DNA of 64,000 nt from Candidatus Parcubacteria bacterium (lineage in GTDB: Bacteria; Patescibacteriota; Patescibacteriia; CAIXNZ01). Made by a program: the position numbers and the translations under genes. The notes beneath the pieces were generated by a model. The model did no database searches. It saw nothing but the letters and a program-made list of their open reading frames with translations, and was not told the origin of the DNA. Of this stretch, positions 1 to 18,878 are shown piece by piece (within the stretch, counting starts at the first letter, position 1; every line of letters begins with the position of its first letter). Location of the stretch: assembly GCA_026395685.1 (NCBI GenBank), contig JAPLYG010000006.1, forward strand, positions 4,943-68,942. Direction: 5' to 3'.

Positions 1-41
1 ATGTACTCAACAAACTCTTGGTCAGCGAATTTTGCAGCCAT
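1..41 (-). CDS. 5' end of an unidentified gene that runs off the left edge (MAAKFADQEFVEY...)
   Basis: Minus-strand ATG at 39-41 preceded by an AAGGA Shine-Dalgarno-like motif. Only 13 codons are visible. Confidence 0.25.
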   Translation of the reverse strand, partial: MAAKFADQEFVEY

Positions 42-278
42 AGTTTTAAAATCCTTGAGCCTTTTAATACGGAAATACCGATTAAAAGCATTAATTCTTA
101 AGATCTTCCGCTATTACTAAGCTCTCGCGAGCTTCTAGCAGATACACTAATTATAGCATATCTACGGAAAAAGTCAACCCCGCTTTTTGCGAAAGGCGGG
201 GTCAATCCCTGGTTGCAGATCTATGTATTTATAAACGTGATGGCAGCGCGACGAAAACAGCTCTTTCCCGAAAAGAAA

Positions 279-313
279 AAACCCGCTTGCCAGCCGCGAG
301 CGGATTTTGTGTT
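279..313 (-). terminator. Rho-independent terminator of the 330..902 gene
   Basis: Read on the minus strand there is a hairpin ccgctcgcggctggcaagcgg followed by TTTTTTCTTTT. Confidence 0.6.
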
Positions 314-329
314 AAGTCGTGTTTCGTTT

Positions 330-902
330 TTATTGAGGAGAAAGCTTCAGAAAGCAAAGATTGTGTTTCCGGAGACAAGCTTTAATCTCCTCCATGGACT
401 TGGGGCCGAGGCCGTAAATCTGACGAAGCTCATTTTCATCAGCTATGGCCAGATCAAAGAGGCAAGTAATCCCCCAAAACTTTAGCCTTTTTGCCGTTCG
501 GCTGGACAGATTCAGCTCATCCAGGGGCTTAAAGGGATATTTCACCCGGGGGTACCCTGATCTGCGCAAAAAAATCCTTATACTATCTTCGCGCAGCAAA
601 ACCTGCGCAACTAACTTCTTTCCCCAAGGTGAATCAATTGCTACTCCTTGCCGAATTAACCAACGGCATCGCCTCAAAGCTTTTCTTTTGAGCTGACCAA
701 CATAGTTTCTGGAAATCTGAAGTTTTTCAGCGATTTCCTTGATTGACAAAGACTCGCAATCCAAGCCATAGTACAAGACAATGACTTGGCGCAGCTTGTA
801 GTCTAGCTGGCCCCAGATAACAGTGCGGGCTTCTTTCAAGAAAAGATTGTTAACTTGCAGATCAGCCCAAAAACCATCGAACCCAGTCTTTTTTTTCGTC
901 AT
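330..902 (-). CDS. Small transcription factor: sigma-70 region-4-like HTH fused to an RNA polymerase alpha-subunit C-terminal-domain-like (HhH) domain
   Basis: LSIKEIAEKLQISRNYVGQLKRKALRRCR matches the sigma70 region 4.2 pattern. The C-terminal stretch LDELNLSSRTAKRLK...LGPKSMEEIKACL matches the alpha-CTD pattern (DLELTVRSANCLK...LGKKSLTEIKDVL). The start was moved to the ATG at 902, which follows GGAGG. Confidence 0.55.
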   Translation of the reverse strand: MTKKKTGFDGFWADLQVNNLFLKEARTVIWGQLDYKLRQVIVLYYGLDCESLSIKEIAEKLQISRNYVGQLKRKALRRCRWLIRQGVAIDSPWGKKLVAQVLLREDSIRIFLRRSGYPRVKYPFKPLDELNLSSRTAKRLKFWGITCLFDLAIADENELRQIYGLGPKSMEEIKACLRKHNLCFLKLSPQ

Positions 903-1135
903 GTTAAACACCTCCATTCCCGATTTTATACATTATCTTAATTTGGCACAGATGTCAATGGGATATAGCCGTTAGTTTGTGGCTTATGGCAGCCGGTTTA
1001 GTCTATGGTATTTGGTTATTGGTATATGACTAAAGACCTAAAACTTACAACTAAACTGGCAGCCCAGACCACCAACTATAAACTAACACAAAAAAACAAC
1101 CCCGCGTCGCGAAGTTGTTTTTTATATAAGAAATA

Positions 1136-1480
1136 TTATTCTGCTTTTGGAGCTTCAGCTGCGGGAGCCGGTTCATTCTTTTTTTTCTTATCAGCTATTT
1201 TAGCAGCACGCTTTTTACTAATTAAAGTAACTTTCTTTTTCTTGCCTTCAACCATACCTTTATCTACCAGTATATTCCAAATGGTAGCTGATGGTTCGGC
1301 ACCCTGAGACAACCAATACTTTACTCTGTCCGCATTTAATTTCAGCTCTTTGGATCGGGGATTGTAATTGCCTAAGTTTTCCAAATATTTACCCCAGGGA
1401 TCTTTTTCTTTTTGAGTTACTAAAACCTTAAAATATGCCTGTTTTTTCTTGCCTGTTCGTGATAAAATAATTTTTAACAT
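1136..1480 (-). CDS. rpsP: 30S ribosomal protein S16
   Basis: MLKIILSRTGKKKQAYFKVLV...NPRSKE...RVKYWLSQGAEPS is the typical S16 sequence. It has a basic C-terminal extension. The start is at the ATG at 1478-1480. Confidence 0.9.
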   Translation of the reverse strand: MLKIILSRTGKKKQAYFKVLVTQKEKDPWGKYLENLGNYNPRSKELKLNADRVKYWLSQGAEPSATIWNILVDKGMVEGKKKKVTLISKKRAAKIADKKKKNEPAPAAEAPKAE

Positions 1481-1629
1481 AAATCTTAATTGTTTAAAAA
1501 AATAAGCCCTTAAATGGCTCGCATAGTATAGCACTAGCCCCAAGGGGGCCCCTTAGGGGCTGATTATTTGTTAGTAATTACTATAATACATAAGAAAATC
1601 ATTGGCGTCAAGGGATTTAGGCTAAGATA

Positions 1630-1658
1630 TTGACAAATGACAAATTTTATGCTATAAT
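1630..1658 (+). promoter_or_regulatory. Near-consensus sigma70 promoter (TTGACA, 17-nt spacer, TATAAT)
   Basis: TTGACA at 1630-1635, a 17-nt spacer, and TATAAT at 1653-1658. It lies inside the N-terminus of the tracked ORF, whose TTG start is therefore probably wrong. Confidence 0.6.
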
Positions 1659-1677
1659 CGAAAGAATAATAATATAT

Positions 1678-3738
1678 ATGATTTTTAAGCATAAACTCAT
1701 CCAAAAACTCATACTTAGCCTGACAATATTTACTATTGTTTGTGGTTTTGTTTTACCCGGCCAAACCCTGGCGCAAAGTGATACAGGCTACCCGAAAATT
1801 GCCAACTATTATATTGCCTGGGATGTATCTGATGAGCAGGCCAAAGAACTAGCCAAATGGGACGTTGTAATTTTGGCTCCTCAGGCAGCTGAAAGAAATC
1901 CGGACTTAATTGATATTATACGCAAAAATAATCCTCAGATTAAAATATTAGTCTACTCAATTGCCGTTGATATTAACTATACGGTAATTACAGAGAGCCC
2001 TCTTTACCAGCGAGTTTATCCTAAAATTCAGGAAAATGACTGGTGGCTTTATGATATGAATGGCCAACATTTAAGCAATTGGCCAAATTGCTGGGTAATA
2101 AACCCAGCCCGAAATGCACCTCGCATTAACGGACAAAATTGGTCAGATTATCTGCCACAGCACGTTTATAATGAATTTTTTAAAGACAATAAATATGACG
2201 GCGTATTTTTTGATAATGTCTGGCCGTCAGTTTCTTGGATTTCACAAAACGTTGACCTTGATCGCAATGGCCAGGCAGACAGCGCCAGTGAACGTGATGC
2301 CAGCTGGATGGAAGGTTTAAATTATATTTTAACAGAAACCAGACGCTTAGCGCCGAATAAAATTATCATGGTTAATAATACTGGTAATTATTATAATTCA
2401 AAATTAAACGGCAGAATGCAGGAAATGTTTCCTAATAATAATGAAGGCGGCTGGACAGGGTCTATGAAAAACTATTTAAATGACGGACTGGGATATCAGC
2501 CTGAATATTTTGTTATTAACGGCGGTACTAAAAACACAGGCAACAAATTTAATTTAACAAATTTTCGTTTAAGCTTAACTTCGACATTACTTGGAGACGG
2601 CTTTTATAGCTTTGATTATGGAGACCAGGATCACGGCAGTATCTGGTGGTACGACGAATATGACGTAAACTTAGGTAACCCAATCTCAAGCCCCAAAAAT
2701 GTTTTGGAACAAAGCACTGAAATCAAGCCCAGTGTCTGGCAGCGTGATTTTCAAAACGGCATTGTACTGGTAAATTCTACGGATAATGAACAGAAAGTAA
2801 CCCTGCCAACTGAATATGAAAAAATCAAAGGCACTCAGGATAAAACTGTAAATAACGGAGCGATCGTCAAAAATGTCAAACTTAATCCTGACGACGGACT
2901 AATTTTATTGCGCCGAATTCAGGATATTAAAAACGCGCCATATTATAACGGTTCTTTTGTCCGTGTCTTTAATAAAAGAGGCGAAACTGAAAGAAACGGC
3001 TTTTTCTTATACGACAAACAATATAAAGGCAATTATATGATTGCCAAAAAAGATATTAATAAGGACGGAAAATTTGAAACTATAGTTGCTAATGGCGGAA
3101 AAATTACCATTTATAACGAGGATAATACAAGCCTGACTGCTTTCTATCCTTATGGCGACAAATATAACAAAGGCTTAAACTTTAGCCTTAGCGATTTTGA
3201 AAATGACGGTTATGTTGAAATAATTACCGGCACAGGCAAAGGCTATGCTCCTCTTGTTAAGGTCTTCAATTCTAACGGGGAAGAACAGGGCACCGGCTTT
3301 TATGCCTATGCCAAATCATATCTTGGCGGAGTTAATGTTGCTGTATGTTCCACTCAAGGCAATGGCAATAAAGAAATAGTTACCGGAACCGGTTTTATGG
3401 GAGGATCTCAGGTAAGAATTTTTGATAAAAACGGCAAAGTCTTGTCCGGCGGATTTTTCGCCTACGGCAAAACATTTCGCGGCGGAGTTAATGTCGCCTG
3501 CGGCGATATTGACGGCAACGGCAAGGATGAAATTGTAACCGGAGCCGGCTATGGCGGCAGTTCCCATGTGCGAATTTTTAACAGTAAATTTGAAGCTTTA
3601 AGCCCGGGATTTTTTGCCTTTGGCAAGGACAGTAAAACTGGCGTCAGAGTCTTTTTATCTGATATTGATAATAACGGCATCCAAGAAATTTTAACCGCGA
3701 CTCCGGATGTGTTTATGTCTGCATTCGCTAATAATTAA
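1678..3738 (+). CDS. Secreted protein: N-terminal TIM-barrel glycoside-hydrolase-like domain (GH114/GHL-type) fused to C-terminal FG-GAP/VCBS beta-propeller repeats
   Basis: A signal peptide (MIFKHKLIQKLILSLTIFTIVCGFVLPGQTLAQ). Five repeats of the form D-x-D/N-x-D/N-G-x-x-E-I-V/I-T-G-x-G. The start was moved to the ATG at 1678, downstream of the promoter. Confidence 0.55.
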   Translation: MIFKHKLIQKLILSLTIFTIVCGFVLPGQTLAQSDTGYPKIANYYIAWDVSDEQAKELAKWDVVILAPQAAERNPDLIDIIRKNNPQIKILVYSIAVDINYTVITESPLYQRVYPKIQENDWWLYDMNGQHLSNWPNCWVINPARNAPRINGQNWSDYLPQHVYNEFFKDNKYDGVFFDNVWPSVSWISQNVDLDRNGQADSASERDASWMEGLNYILTETRRLAPNKIIMVNNTGNYYNSKLNGRMQEMFPNNNEGGWTGSMKNYLNDGLGYQPEYFVINGGTKNTGNKFNLTNFRLSLTSTLLGDGFYSFDYGDQDHGSIWWYDEYDVNLGNPISSPKNVLEQSTEIKPSVWQRDFQNGIVLVNSTDNEQKVTLPTEYEKIKGTQDKTVNNGAIVKNVKLNPDDGLILLRRIQDIKNAPYYNGSFVRVFNKRGETERNGFFLYDKQYKGNYMIAKKDINKDGKFETIVANGGKITIYNEDNTSLTAFYPYGDKYNKGLNFSLSDFENDGYVEIITGTGKGYAPLVKVFNSNGEEQGTGFYAYAKSYLGGVNVAVCSTQGNGNKEIVTGTGFMGGSQVRIFDKNGKVLSGGFFAYGKTFRGGVNVACGDIDGNGKDEIVTGAGYGGSSHVRIFNSKFEALSPGFFAFGKDSKTGVRVFLSDIDNNGIQEILTATPDVFMSAFANN

Positions 3739-3764
3739 TAACGTGTTAAAATGAAAGTAACGAT

Positions 3765-5645
3765 ATGTTAACCAACCCAAACGACAAAAAAGATATTATC
3801 AGGGTTCAGCCTAAACCGGTTGAAAATGTAAAAAAAGCCGCTGCTACAAGTGTCGGCGGACTTAAGATTGGCAATGTTCAAACTTTAAACCTGATTGTTG
3901 AGCCTTTGAAAAAAAGATATGAAACTCATTATAAAAAAGACAAGATGCATTTAATTGTGGACCTTGTTTTAGGTGCAATTATTTTAATATTATTGGGCGT
4001 TATGGTAAACCTTTGGATTTTTAGCCGCAGCCGCATCAATTTAATGGATTTTAAAGTTAGCTCCAGCCCTGAAAATCTGGTTAATGGCCAGGAAACTGAA
4101 TTTACCATTGATTATACCAATACCTCCAAAGACGAACTGCACAATGTTACCCTTATTTTTAAAACACCAACTGGTTTAAATAATCCCCAGTACAGCACTC
4201 TGGATTTTGACCTTAAAAACAATACTTTAAAAATAGGAGACCTGGCAGAAAACGCTCATGGCCAATTTAAAGTTAAAGGCTTGCTTTTAGGCAACTACAA
4301 TGACAAGCAGGAATTTATTGCCGCCATTACTTACCAAAATAAATACGGCCAGACCAGCCAGGAATTTTTTAACCAGCAATTTGCTTTAACTGACTCCGTA
4401 ATAAAAACAGAGCTTAAGGTTCCTGAACGTGTTATTAGTAACGGCATTTTTACAGCCAATTTAAATTTAAATAATATTTCCACTTTCAATCTTGAAACCG
4501 TTAAAATAAAAATTGACGGACCTGCTAATTTTAATCTGCGCCAGGTCAAGCTGGATAAAGTCGGCGCCAATACTTATTTAATCGGCAAATTGGCTGCCGG
4601 CCAGAATTTTTCACAGGATTTTTCAGCCAAAATTCTTGGAAGCAAAGAAACCAGCGCCACGGTTTCCACTGAAATCATTGCGACCTATAATAACGAGGAA
4701 TTTGTTTTATATAAAATTGATAATACTATAACTACCAGTATCTCAAATTTAAAATTGGGATTTTTGAATCTGGACGCTAACCGCAATATTGCTCCGGGAG
4801 GCACAACTACTTATACTTTGTATTATAAAAATAATGAGGATTACACCCTGCAAAATGTGGAATTAGGCTTGGCTTTATCTGGTGATTACGCTGATACCAG
4901 TTATTTGGCGAAAAGCTATAAAGCTAGTCAGGGTAATACTGTATTTTTTGGACAAAAAGATTATCCTGAACTGGCCAAGGTTGAACCTGGAAAAGAAGGC
5001 CAAATTCAAATTAAAGTTGCTGCTAAATCAAATATTGTTTTTTTGCAATTCTTAGAAACCGGCTATAAGCTGGAAGCTACGGTTTTAGCGAACTATGATG
5101 ATCCGGAATTAAAAACCAGAGTAACCTTGGAAGGCGAACCTATTTATACCAATGTAGATTCTGATTTAAATTTAAAAACCACAGCAATGTTTTATACCAG
5201 CCAGGGTGACCAAATCGGAGTAGGCAATATACCGCCAATAGTAGGGGAATACACCTCATACTGGGCAATCATTAAAATAAATAATACTAATAATAAAATT
5301 AAAGACTTAAAAGTTACAGCCAAGGTACCGGCTGGCATTGAGTTTACAAATATCTATAATGTCACTGACGGCGAACAAATAAAATATAATGAGGCAACCG
5401 GACAAATTGAATGGAATGTGGCCAATGTCAATGCCTTTGCCGGTATTTTCAGCGCTTCACCTGAAGCCCGCATCCAGCTGGCAATTACTCCGACTGAAAA
5501 TCAAATTGGTAAAAGCCCGTTATTACTAACCGATATTAAAGCTCTGGCAACTGATGCGGTTACTGGCTCATTTTTATCAGCCAGCGGCCAAAATATTAGT
5601 ATCGCGATCTTTGATGATCCAAGCTTAAACAAGGTGACGCCTTAA
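3765..5645 (+). CDS. Membrane-anchored surface protein with repeated beta-sandwich (DUF11/CARDB-like) domains. Hypothetical.
   Basis: A 626-aa ORF with one TM helix near residues 60-85 and a long Thr/Asn-rich extracellular region. The domain call is from pattern only. Confidence 0.45.
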   Translation: MLTNPNDKKDIIRVQPKPVENVKKAAATSVGGLKIGNVQTLNLIVEPLKKRYETHYKKDKMHLIVDLVLGAIILILLGVMVNLWIFSRSRINLMDFKVSSSPENLVNGQETEFTIDYTNTSKDELHNVTLIFKTPTGLNNPQYSTLDFDLKNNTLKIGDLAENAHGQFKVKGLLLGNYNDKQEFIAAITYQNKYGQTSQEFFNQQFALTDSVIKTELKVPERVISNGIFTANLNLNNISTFNLETVKIKIDGPANFNLRQVKLDKVGANTYLIGKLAAGQNFSQDFSAKILGSKETSATVSTEIIATYNNEEFVLYKIDNTITTSISNLKLGFLNLDANRNIAPGGTTTYTLYYKNNEDYTLQNVELGLALSGDYADTSYLAKSYKASQGNTVFFGQKDYPELAKVEPGKEGQIQIKVAAKSNIVFLQFLETGYKLEATVLANYDDPELKTRVTLEGEPIYTNVDSDLNLKTTAMFYTSQGDQIGVGNIPPIVGEYTSYWAIIKINNTNNKIKDLKVTAKVPAGIEFTNIYNVTDGEQIKYNEATGQIEWNVANVNAFAGIFSASPEARIQLAITPTENQIGKSPLLLTDIKALATDAVTGSFLSASGQNISIAIFDDPSLNKVTP

Positions 5646-16052: not shown

Positions 16053-17453
16053 ATGAATACTCTACAAATCTGGGAAGCTGTCTTAGGCGACCTGGAGCTC
16101 TCTCTCAGTAAAGCAAACTTTACAACCTGGTTTAAGGGAACTTTTATATTGGAAATGGATGACAAAAGCGTGACTATCGGCGTGCCTAATGCCTTTACTA
16201 AAAGCTGGCTGGAAAAGAAATACTCAGCTGACCTTTTAAAGGCTTTACGCAATATTACCGAAGTAACTTTACGCGAAATAAATTTCAAGGTAGCGTCCCT
16301 CAAAAAAGATTTCAACCAAAAAGAATATCCTGCTGATTCGGCAAAACAAACAACCGCGGGAGAAAAAGAGAAAAAGCAGGCCGAGCGCATTAATATTTCC
16401 CCGGCGCCGGCGCAGGCAATGGCTAATTCTTTTGGGCTAAACCCAAAATATACCTTTACTACTTTTGTGGTTGGCAAAAACAATGAGCTTGCCAGAGCTG
16501 CTTCTTTGGCCGTAGCGGCAAATCCGGGAGTAACTTATAATCCTCTTTTTCTTTATGGCGGAGCCGGCTTAGGAAAGACTCACCTTATTCAGGCAATAGG
16601 CAATGAAATTTTAAAAATAGAAGCCGATAAAAAAATTCTCTATATTACCTGCGAAAAATTCACCAATGACTTTATTAATTCTATAACTAATGGCAAAGCC
16701 TCCAATTTTAAAGATATTTACCGATCAGTGGATGTCTTGTTAATTGATGACATCCAATTTTTAGCGGGCAAAGAAGGTACTCAGGAGGAATTTTTCCATA
16801 CTTTTAATGCCCTCCATCAAAATAACAAACAGGTTGTCTTAACCTCTGACCGCCCGCCCAAATCAATTCCCGCCCTAGAAAACAGGCTTTTATCCCGTTT
16901 TGAATGGGGAATGATCGCAGACGTCTCCTTGCCCGATATGGAAACCAGGCTGGCTATTTTAGAAACCAAAGCTATTGAAAAAAACTATCAGATAGCAAAG
17001 GAAATCTTACATTATCTGGCTGTTAATATTGCCAGCAACATTCGGGAATTGGAAGGGGCTTTAAACAGAATTATTGCCTATCATCAACTAAATGCGATTG
17101 TGCCTACCTTGGAAAGCGTAAAAAAACTTTTGGCCGGTCTGACAACCAACTTACAAAAAAAGTCAGTTACTCCCAAAGATATTATTTATACTGTCTCCAA
17201 TTATTATGACGTGCAATTAGAGGATCTTTTAGGGGCTTCCCGCGAAAAAAAGCTGGTTACACCGAGACAAATCATTATGTTTTTAATGCGAGAAGAGATA
17301 AAGAGCTCTTTCCCCATGATTGGGCAGGAACTGGGAGGACGCGACCACACCACTGCCATGCATGCTGTTGAAAAAATAAGAAATGATTATGATAATGACG
17401 AAAAAACAAGAAGAGAAATTGAACAGCTCAGGCAAAGATTATACAATATTTAG
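16053..17453 (+). CDS. dnaA: Chromosomal replication initiator protein DnaA
   Basis: Walker A GGAGLGKTHL. Also LLIDDIQFL, the sensor and box VII region, and a C-terminal DNA-binding domain. Confidence 0.95.
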   Translation: MNTLQIWEAVLGDLELSLSKANFTTWFKGTFILEMDDKSVTIGVPNAFTKSWLEKKYSADLLKALRNITEVTLREINFKVASLKKDFNQKEYPADSAKQTTAGEKEKKQAERINISPAPAQAMANSFGLNPKYTFTTFVVGKNNELARAASLAVAANPGVTYNPLFLYGGAGLGKTHLIQAIGNEILKIEADKKILYITCEKFTNDFINSITNGKASNFKDIYRSVDVLLIDDIQFLAGKEGTQEEFFHTFNALHQNNKQVVLTSDRPPKSIPALENRLLSRFEWGMIADVSLPDMETRLAILETKAIEKNYQIAKEILHYLAVNIASNIRELEGALNRIIAYHQLNAIVPTLESVKKLLAGLTTNLQKKSVTPKDIIYTVSNYYDVQLEDLLGASREKKLVTPRQIIMFLMREEIKSSFPMIGQELGGRDHTTAMHAVEKIRNDYDNDEKTRREIEQLRQRLYNI

Positions 17454-17717
17454 GTGTGCACTGTTTGTTAATAAAAATGTTTATAAATTATAAACAGCCT
17501 GTGTAAAAAGTCAGCCCCTTAAAGCAACTAGTCTTTCGCAATTTATTTATACACCCTTTGTTAACATTTTTTTTCATTCTTTATTCCTAGTTTATCAACA
17601 GTAAGAATCTTAAAATTCATCGATAAATAAAAGGCTCGTACTCTTTTCCTTTCACTTATCCACTTCCTTATTACTATTATTATAAAATATATTATTTAAT
17701 AATTAATATAATACGAT
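17454..17717. other. dnaA-dnaN intergenic region: candidate oriC with an AT-rich unwinding element
   Basis: TTATCAACA at 17592 and TTATCCACT at 17656. A near-pure AT tract runs from 17670 to 17717. Confidence 0.4.
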
Positions 17718-18878
17718 ATGAAAATATCCTGTACTCAAGAAAATTTAAATCAGGGTTTAAATATAGTCTCCCATATAGCCAGTAAAAACACCTCCCTCCC
17801 GATTTTAAATAATGTTTTAATTAGAGCGGAAAAGGGTATTTTAAGTTTAATTACCACGAATCTTGAAATGGGGATCCAGTGTCAGGTTAGGGGTAAAATA
17901 GAAAAGGATGGCAGTTATACGGCAAACTCCAAACTGCTAAATGATTATATTAATTTATTGGGTAACCAAAAAGTTGAAATAGAATTAAAGGATGATAATT
18001 TGGAAATTACTTCTGAACAGCAAACCACTAAAATAAAGGGTAATAGTCCTGAAGAATTTCCACTTATTCCCAAAATTGAGAAAAAGAGCGCCTATAAATG
18101 CAAAGTCAATAAATTAATTGAGGCCTTTTCCCAGGTATTATTTGCCGTTTCCGTGTCTGAGACAAGACCTGAAATCTCGGGCGTATATTTAAGCTTTATT
18201 GATGATGTTTTAACTCTGGCGGCAACAGACAGCTATCGCTTAGCTGAAAAGCAGATCAAGCTGATAGAAAAAGTAACAGCAGAAAAAGATGTTATTATTC
18301 CCGCCAAGACCGCCCAGGAGCTGATGAGAATTTTATCCACTCTTTCCGTGGTTGAGGCGGAAGACGGTAAGGATGCAAGTGATTTGGTGGAAATATATTT
18401 TGAGGACAATCAGGTATTATTTGTTTTTGACAATGTAGAATTAGTGTCAAGAATAATTGAAGGCCAGTATCCCAATTACAAACAAATTATTCCGGCGAAC
18501 TTCAAGACAAAAGGAGTTGTTAATATTTCGGATTTTACCAAGGCAGTCAAAACAGCCTCCTTATTTTCCAGAACCGGAATTTTTGACATTAATTTGGAAT
18601 TCAAGGCAGGTAAGGTTATTATTTCTTCCACCAATAACCAGCTGGGGGAAAACAAGTCAAAATTAAACATTGCCGCGCAGGGGGATGATAATAAAGTTGT
18701 TATTAACTACCGTTATTTACTCGACGGCCTGCAAAACATCAACTCAACAGATGTTATTTATGAAATGATTGATGCCAATAATCCGTGCATTTTAAGGCCG
18801 GCTGAAAGTTTGAAGGATAACAAAGAGGCAATTGCTGCTCAGGATTATTTGTATATTATCATGCCGATTAAGCAGTAG
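17718..18878 (+). CDS. dnaN: DNA polymerase III beta sliding clamp
   Basis: 386 aa in the position immediately after dnaA. It has the three-domain pattern (LNQGLNIVSHIAS...). Confidence 0.9.
   Translation: MKISCTQENLNQGLNIVSHIASKNTSLPILNNVLIRAEKGILSLITTNLEMGIQCQVRGKIEKDGSYTANSKLLNDYINLLGNQKVEIELKDDNLEITSEQQTTKIKGNSPEEFPLIPKIEKKSAYKCKVNKLIEAFSQVLFAVSVSETRPEISGVYLSFIDDVLTLAATDSYRLAEKQIKLIEKVTAEKDVIIPAKTAQELMRILSTLSVVEAEDGKDASDLVEIYFEDNQVLFVFDNVELVSRIIEGQYPNYKQIIPANFKTKGVVNISDFTKAVKTASLFSRTGIFDINLEFKAGKVIISSTNNQLGENKSKLNIAAQGDDNKVVINYRYLLDGLQNINSTDVIYEMIDANNPCILRPAESLKDNKEAIAAQDYLYIIMPIKQ

Follow-up and report, generated by a model that had tools for sequence, protein, structure and literature searches.

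The analyzed sequence, called the window below, is a 64,000-nt stretch of the genome of a Candidatus Parcubacteria bacterium (assembly GCA_026395685.1, contig JAPLYG010000006.1, positions 4,943 to 68,942). Near its beginning, on the minus strand, lies a gene for a small protein in which a helix-turn-helix (HTH) domain of the type found in region 4 of sigma-70 factors (sigma-4) is fused with a helix-hairpin-helix (HhH) domain similar to the C-terminal domain of the RNA polymerase alpha subunit (alpha-CTD). The gene is located between rpsP and the gene for a KhpA-type protein (khpA), and its features are listed in Table 1.

The sole minus-strand open reading frame (ORF) of this region extends over positions 330–917. 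Read from its first ATG (917), it encodes 195 aa, which is the protein length given in an initial annotation made from the sequence alone. This start was rejected since the codon overlaps the ribosome-binding site, and the ATG at 902 is preferred owing to the placement of that site, the 190-aa call at NCBI and the same start point in two orthologues, which begin with MMKKR and MVKKP at the equivalent of position 902. The 190-aa form begins with MTKKK and corresponds to positions 330–902, the coordinates that had been proposed initially and that proved to be right. It is 100% identical to the "hypothetical protein NTZ49_01105" (P0001) of a Candidatus Parcubacteria bacterium metagenome-assembled genome. 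Two residue numberings are used here; numbers of the 195-aa form, marked as such, equal those of the 190-aa form plus 5.

According to the Pfam analysis, the N-terminal domain of the protein belongs to Sigma70_r4 (E 1.3e-11, 44.2 bits with a cut-off of 24.1; residues 37–85, 195-aa numbering), and a match to Sigma70_r4_2 was also found (25.9 bits). The RpoD/SigK models of NCBIfam were matched only at their C-terminal ends, far under the cut-offs. PDB sequence searches returned sigma region 4 chains, and Foldseek indicated similarity with domain 4 of Staphylococcus aureus sigma-A (4g6d_A, target template modeling (TM) score 0.76). The domain has the same four-helix HTH as the sigma-70 family and aligns to region 4 of RpoD, RpoS and SigA. 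In the alignment with sigma-70, R70, Q75 and R89 (195-aa numbering) fall on R584, Q589 and R603, and the residues aligned with K593, R596 and R599 are retained as well. At the positions of E585, R586 and R588, however, the protein contains N, Y and G, so that canonical recognition of the -35 element is unlikely.

The C-terminal domain was assigned to RNA_pol_A_CTD (E 7.4e-12, 45.3 bits with a cut-off of 23.8; residues 128–183, 195-aa numbering), while generic HhH and other HTH families of Pfam fell under their cut-offs (HHH_5, 17.3 bits versus 27). RpoA equivalog models of NCBIfam gave 35–37 bits versus cut-offs of 228–277 and were matched only at positions ~237–314. Alpha-CTDs were also present among the PDB sequence matches (e.g., 1doq, 1.8e-5). 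Residues 129–187 (195-aa numbering) align without gaps to residues 254–312 of the Escherichia coli alpha subunit; R140 (R135 in the 190-aa form), G171, K173 and S174 of the 195-aa form fall on R265, G296, K298 and S299, and the residues aligned with K271 and E302 are retained too. In place of N268, C269, N294 and E261 of E. coli alpha, the protein contains K, R, G and N, respectively. Foldseek confirmed the HhH fold of RpoA, with target TM scores of 0.92 for 7vpd_S, 0.90 for 1z3e_B (root-mean-square deviation 1.1 Å) and 0.82 for 3n97, in which an alpha-CTD lies beside sigma region 4 on UP/-35 DNA.

3D modeling with AlphaFold2 on an alignment of 34 sequences gave a mean predicted local distance difference test score (pLDDT) of 85.6, with values above 90 in the cores of both domains. 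The linker between the domains varies more than any other part of the protein, its length and sequence differing across the family; its helix spans residues 92–114 of the model. The N-terminal stretch is modeled as a helix (residues 7–15) with lower confidence (pLDDT 67–69) and lies outside the profile-profile alignment discussed below. Its motif has the form G[FY]xG[FL]xAxL in members from bacteria of the candidate phyla radiation (CPR), and YP[FY]NLA in the phage subfamily is a possible counterpart; this motif may be a docking peptide. The initial annotation had read the N-terminal half as sigma region 4 and the C-terminal half as alpha-CTD, quoting aligned strings for the latter and suggesting profile searches and a structural model. 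Both assignments hold: the two specific profiles lie beyond the Pfam curated cut-offs, sigma region 4 was recovered for the N-terminal half and no unrelated HhH family for the C-terminal half, the ungapped alignment reproduces the quoted strings, and both modeled folds are confident and match solved structures.

Neither Sigma70_r2 nor Sigma70_r3 of Pfam was detected in the protein even at E ≤ 10, and no match to the alpha N-terminal domain (RNA_pol_L/RNA_pol_A_bac) was found. In the absence of these domains, the protein is neither a sigma factor nor RpoA. Unlike sigma-70 family members, it has no regions 1.2, 2 and 3 and would not bind core polymerase stably, read the -10 element or melt DNA; unlike RpoA, it has no domain for dimerization and assembly. 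Custom RpoD and RpoA profiles matched only this ORF in the window (at positions 282–348 of 358 and 253–310, respectively), and neither rpoA nor rpoD is present there. Sigma region 2 and the alpha N-terminal domain were likewise not detected within 6 kb of 17 homologous loci. Pfam showed no GerE match (PF00196) at E ≤ 10, so the LuxR/GerE signature is absent, and no match to the phage late-gene activator families RinA, ArpU and LtrC. No anti-sigma family (e.g., zinc-binding ASD, Rsd/AlgQ, AsiA, FlgM) appeared among the Pfam and NCBIfam matches. In PHROGs, only generic families of sigma factors or regulators were matched, by way of the sigma-4 part, and no model of PHROGs, NCBIfam or PADLOC spans the whole architecture, all matches being partial and at the level of single domains.

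Table 1. Features of the fusion gene and its neighbors in the window (residues in 190-aa numbering).
Feature	Position	Strand	Comment
Coding sequence of the sigma-4/alpha-CTD fusion protein	330..902	-	190 aa; stop codon TAA at 330-332
N-terminal 20 residues	843..902	-	Short conserved aromatic motif GFDGFWADL, from family alignments
Sigma-70 region-4-like four-helix HTH domain	639..842	-	Residues ~21-88; Pfam core 32-80
Linker	534..638	-	Residues 89-123; one long predicted helix
RNA polymerase alpha-CTD-like HhH domain	348..533	-	Residues ~124-185
Ribosome-binding site GGAGGTG	909-915	-	6 nt (903-908) upstream of ATG 902
Promoter-like site	930..958	-	TTGACA (958-953), 17-nt spacer, TAATGT (935-930); direct sequence reading
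Intrinsic terminator	271..308	-	Hairpin then U-run (GGGUUUUUUCUUUU), downstream of the fusion gene
rpsP (ribosomal protein S16)	1136..1459	-	Upstream neighbor; Pfam Ribosomal_S16, 63.3 bits
Terminator-like site of rpsP	1091-1123		Follows rpsP
KhpA-type KH-domain protein, start only	1..41	-	Downstream neighbor; translation MAAKFADQEFVEY...

The fusion gene is a self-contained unit with its own promoter-like site, ribosome-binding site and terminator. These signals were compared with the loci of the two orthologues, whose proteins show 82% (L007) and 46% (L001) identity. The GGAGGT core of the ribosome-binding site (910–915) is invariant across the three loci, and the seventh base is A in L007. 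The promoter-like site of L007 is the same except for one base of the spacer, and L001 contains TTGACA-N18-TATAAT at the equivalent place. The consensus promoter scan omits the site of the window, as its -10 element agrees at only 3/6 positions; GATAAT at 937–932 overlaps this element. The terminator hairpin (RNA fold -17.2 kcal/mol, z -2.1) was also called on the plus strand and is kept in both L007 and L001.

The gene order is conserved as well. In L001, a truncated upstream ORF is followed by the fusion gene and a KhpA-type orthologue that begins with MAEKFQDQEFLEY and carries KH_KhpA-B. In L007, truncated flanking ORFs occupy the matching positions, and the downstream ORF starts with the same sequence as khpA. 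In three genomes, the fusion gene holds the place between rpsP and khpA. The remaining part of the window is core chromosome, with genes for trigger factor, DnaA, DnaN and a class A penicillin-binding protein (PBP), and contains no phage genes.

Comparison with the 82% orthologue gave a ratio of nonsynonymous to synonymous substitution rates (dN/dS) of 0.34 overall, 0.19 for the sigma-4 domain, 0.20 for the alpha-CTD and 0.56 for the linker. Both domains are under purifying selection, and the gene is a real, selected one. At the DNA level, the stretch from the -35 hexamer to approximately codon 70 (window 690–958, minus strand) is ~95% identical to L007; the first 25 codons contain no synonymous change, the divergence is found mostly in the linker, and the alignment breaks down immediately upstream of the -35 element. 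Recombination or constraint at the nucleotide level could explain this pattern. The explanation that the ORF is mis-called or decaying, or that the domain similarities arose by chance, has nothing in its favor beyond the small size of the two domains and is excluded by the Pfam E-values of ~1e-11 for both, the confident model with its fold matches, the dN/dS ratio and the conservation of the ribosome-binding site, promoter and terminator.

A single-protein scan of 185,579 species-representative genomes found no orthologue, its only two matches being sigma-4-only proteins. An exhaustive search against 1.84 billion representative proteins yielded 318 matches, of which only the 82% and 46% identical proteins were close, although several further proteins of 176–206 aa contained the same two domains in the same order. 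In a profile search of a collection of 5.8 billion clusters, ~75 clusters with both Pfam domains were detected, ~35 of them short (190–250 aa) and ~40 longer, many of the latter with an additional N-terminal Xre/Cro HTH. In the sources, members are named "hypothetical", "RNA polymerase alpha subunit" or "CsgD family regulator" (JGI), and UniProt A0A1F6C3M0 from Candidatus Jorgensenbacteria is named "RNA polymerase sigma-70 domain-containing protein". About 30 clusters (P0182–P0221; 290–350 aa) combine three DNA-binding modules, namely, the Xre/Cro HTH, sigma region 4 and alpha-CTD; Xre-bearing members (loci L011, 6001–7050, and L012, 1962–3011) are located in phage-looking contigs with Tad2-like and Lar-like genes.

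The genomic contexts are of two kinds. Some members come from CPR-like chromosomes or islands: the gene for P0089 has a superoxide dismutase gene and rpmB as its neighbors, that for P0076 is near ftsW, and that for P0105 is located among small ORFs with HicA and an integrase. Others come from phage genomes: P0161 is encoded in a phage contig, with a replication/RusA/ThyX module on one side and the terminase on the other, the usual place of phage late regulators, and P0194 is found in phage-like contigs. Approximately 11 IMG/VR contigs, including ones of 100 kb and 292 kb, encode full-length family members.

The window protein resembles these proteins in that sigma-4 is followed by the linker and alpha-CTD within a single polypeptide of ~180–250 aa. 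The hhalign comparison of the Parcubacteria trio with the phage subfamily gave a probability of 99% and an E-value of 7.7e-18 over residues 27–183, the match being co-linear over sigma-4, linker and alpha-CTD; the same co-linear architecture is seen in the other members (e.g., A0A1F6C3M0 and P0161), with lengths of 176–250 aa. The trio nevertheless forms a divergent branch, only 20–30% identical to the other proteins and distinguished by its changed recognition helix and its chromosomal location between rpsP and khpA, whereas most other members combine an RpoD-identical 4.2 helix with a Firmicute-like alpha-CTD. A full-text literature search found no paper on this architecture, and no curated family or solved structure was found for it. 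In terms of domain content, the architecture is a new combination of two well-known modules, rare but recurrent. The initial annotation had called it non-standard and suggested searching related genomes for it: the search recovered it in phage contigs and CPR genomes, and the architecture is indeed uncharacterized, yet with ~75 protein clusters it is not unique.

The conservation pattern was assessed over 34 family members. The only invariant residue (34/34) is that aligned with alpha R265. The alpha positions N268, C269, N294, G296, K298, S299 and E302 are kept in 25–33 of the 34 members, and the sigma-4 positions Q589, K593, R596, K597 and R599 in 31–33; in E. coli, these are the residues through which the two domains contact DNA. 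The net charge of the fusion protein is +17. The Xre/Cro-type HTH carried by many relatives is a classic DNA-binding head of repressors.

The best-supported reading, which we consider somewhat more probable than its negation, is that the protein is a stand-alone, two-headed DNA-binding regulator with a two-part DNA site. It is based on the conserved DNA-contact residues, the charge, the Xre HTH of the relatives and the lack of a core-polymerase anchor in the protein. From what is directly established (the two domains and their folds, purifying selection, the own transcription unit, synteny and the conserved contact residues), we infer DNA binding, a two-part site and a direction of regulation as follows. 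The sigma-4-type HTH would enter the major groove of a specific site, and the alpha-CTD-type HhH would use the residues aligned with R265, G296, K298 and S299 to bind the adjacent A/T-rich minor groove, the two modules being joined by a flexible, fast-evolving helical linker of ~35 residues. Lacking the alpha N-terminal domain as well as regions 2 and 3 of sigma, the protein could neither melt promoters nor assemble into core polymerase and would act in trans on DNA, either blocking promoters by occupying their upstream half or helping polymerase to bind alongside. As three of the five residues by which sigma-70 reads the -35 element are changed, the site of the window protein is probably not the canonical TTGACA. 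Proteins of the phage subfamily, with their RpoD-identical 4.2 helix, plausibly read -35-like TTGACA together with UP-like DNA.

Several points weigh against this reading. The putative recognition helix differs between the window protein (ISRNYVGQ) and the 46% orthologue (ISHTSAGQ), and such divergence argues against a single operator common to both. No binding site was identified; the sole conserved non-coding candidate nearby, the spacer of the khpA promoter, is not recurrent, and as an operator it was rejected, with 3 matches in the window versus 1.9 expected, no more than chance. The AlphaFold2 predicted TM score (pTM) of 0.53 carries no information on the mutual arrangement of the two domains. 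Finally, both parent domains are also protein-protein surfaces in RNA polymerase, and their conservation is no proof of DNA binding.

A close structural parallel is PDB 3N97, the complex of alpha-CTD and sigma-4 on DNA with UP and -35 elements, where the same two modules are neighbors on DNA. In the window protein, sigma-4 precedes the alpha-CTD, and the linker would leave region 4.2 at its C-terminal end near the R603 position, a geometry that would fit an alpha-CTD placed just upstream of sigma-4. In contrast to 3N97, the modules are covalently joined in one small, polymerase-independent protein, recognized here from its sequence and model. Sigma-4-like HTHs serve as DNA-binding heads outside sigma factors in LuxR/GerE/FixJ effector domains and in the C-terminal domain of WhiA; the window protein is distinguished from the LuxR/GerE/FixJ proteins by the missing GerE match and by a partner domain that is an alpha-CTD, not a receiver or ligand-binding domain. 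In laboratory chimeras of alpha and sigma region 4, used in bacterial two-hybrid systems, an isolated region 4 is able to bind a -35-like element when tethered. In these chimeras, sigma-4 replaces the alpha-CTD on the alpha N-terminal domain, whereas the natural protein combines sigma-4 with alpha-CTD and lacks the alpha N-terminal domain.

A broader interpretation, which we put forward tentatively and regard as rather doubtful, is that the family consists of autonomous copies of the upstream promoter-reading unit of polymerase (UP plus -35), with which phages and CPR bacteria would act in trans on a whole class of promoters, by occupying, marking or competing for them. This would amount to promoter-class-specific control through mimicry of the DNA-reading head of polymerase. 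Given its RpoD-identical recognition helix, the phage subfamily would then target UP-containing host promoters of the sigma-A type (e.g., rRNA promoters), and the Parcubacteria branch would have re-tuned its specificity.

The protein might instead dock on RNA polymerase, its sigma-4-like domain sitting on the beta-flap tip in place of the resident sigma region 4 or beside it. This would be similar to sigma appropriation or to the role of the second half in a split sigma, and the fused alpha-CTD would provide polymerase with an additional or alternative anchor on upstream DNA. Systems with split or appropriated sigma factors exist (AsiA/MotA and gp55/gp33 of phage T4; SigO-RsoA of Bacillus subtilis), the N-terminal domain is nearer to genuine sigma region 4 than to the HTHs of LuxR/GerE proteins, and the conserved N-terminal motif could serve as a docking peptide. 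The residue aligned with sigma-70 R603, the contact point of the alpha-CTD in E. coli, is retained as well. Nevertheless, region 4 alone, in the absence of the remainder of sigma, has only a weak affinity for the flap, and the strongest conservation in the family is observed at DNA-contact positions. An RpoD-derived profile, of limited reach, found no region-2-bearing ORF in the window or within 6 kb of the 17 homologous loci, and the lack of a region-2 partner near any of these 18 loci disfavors the split-sigma idea. Overall, docking appears improbable.

The gene could also be a passenger of mobile elements, i.e., a recently captured phage or island regulator, for instance an activator of late genes, that contributes little or nothing to host physiology. 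Most members with a readable context are viral or located in islands (P0161, P0194, P0105 and the IMG/VR contigs), and the window gene, which has a promoter and a terminator of its own, is a self-contained insert in an otherwise conserved rpsP–khpA cluster. However, its position there is kept down to 46% protein identity under purifying selection, and its surroundings (S16, trigger factor, DnaA, DnaN and PBP) are core chromosome free of phage genes. The viral collections gave no close relative: an IMG/VR scan with the window protein found nothing, and tblastn against GenBank phages gave one partial match, in the sigma part only. A host function is favored by the conserved synteny, the selection and the core-chromosome setting, and we consider the passenger explanation quite unlikely; it is a matter of origin more than of mechanism and does not conflict with a stand-alone regulator.

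A decoy or anti-activator role, in which a soluble copy of two polymerase surfaces titrates regulators or proteins that target sigma-4 or alpha-CTD, seems highly unlikely. Activators contact RNA polymerase mainly at sigma-4 and alpha-CTD, and phages are known to attack this interface, as does ORF67 of phage G1 on sigma-A domain 4 (4g6d, one of the fold matches). But a mimic should track its host, and many surface positions of the window protein depart from the host-like consensus; in addition, family conservation is centered on DNA-contact residues, and no anti-sigma family was matched, PADLOC giving only partial, domain-level matches. Among the three functions offered in the initial annotation, a transcription factor fits best, given the conserved residues predicted to contact DNA, tethering to RNA polymerase is possible, and an anti-sigma role found no support.

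Sigma region 4 and alpha-CTD are the parts of polymerase that recognize the upstream half of the promoter and the parts that most activators touch. If the stand-alone regulator reading is true and the two modules bind UP-like and -35-like DNA alone, the family would be a new class of regulators imitating the promoter-reading head of polymerase, and the protein would be a compact natural reader of both DNA grooves. CPR bacteria have few known regulators, and such a protein would give initial access to the control of transcription in Parcubacteria and their phages. If docking on polymerase is true instead, it would represent a new form of sigma-4 replacement.

As for the neighboring genes, khpA has a promoter of the form TTGACT-16 nt-TATAAT with a TG extension (177–150, minus strand; 11/12 in the scan). 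Including its spacer, it is conserved in all three genomes, ~30/33 nt even in comparison with the distant L001. Downstream of it lies a partly conserved leader of ~100 nt (window 42–177). Rfam detected no known RNA in window positions 1–1700, i.e., around the fusion gene and this leader. The rpsP ORF (1136–1543, minus strand) encodes a C-terminal tail rich in Lys, Ala and Pro; since the Pfam S16 match begins at residue 29 of the TTG-initiated ORF, the real start is probably an ATG near 1459. Two adjoining genes for large predicted surface proteins are located at 1630–5645 (plus strand): a 702-aa GHL15 glycosyl-hydrolase-like protein with FG-GAP repeats and a 626-aa protein with DUF11 repeats. 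The dnaA and dnaN genes are adjacent (16053–18878, plus strand), and the window likely includes or adjoins the chromosomal replication origin.

Related modules were also encountered in other proteins. The alpha-CTD domain matches the C-terminal part of a model of the beta' subunit (NCBIfam NF011498, positions 1316–1372), and some beta' subunits seem, by this profile match, to contain an alpha-CTD-like module. Many long metagenomic proteins (P0004–P0012 and others) consist of tandem alpha-CTD-like repeats, tandem sigma-region-4 repeats or mixtures of them. Tandem sigma-region-4 repeats occur in P0006, P0007 and P0010 (1722 aa), while P0004 (891 aa) and P0005 (1031 aa) contain 9 alpha-CTD-like copies each. 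The gene for P0004 (locus L097, 5001–7676) is located in a bacterial-looking 90-kb contig, beside genes for another alpha-CTD protein and Sel1/HEAT proteins.

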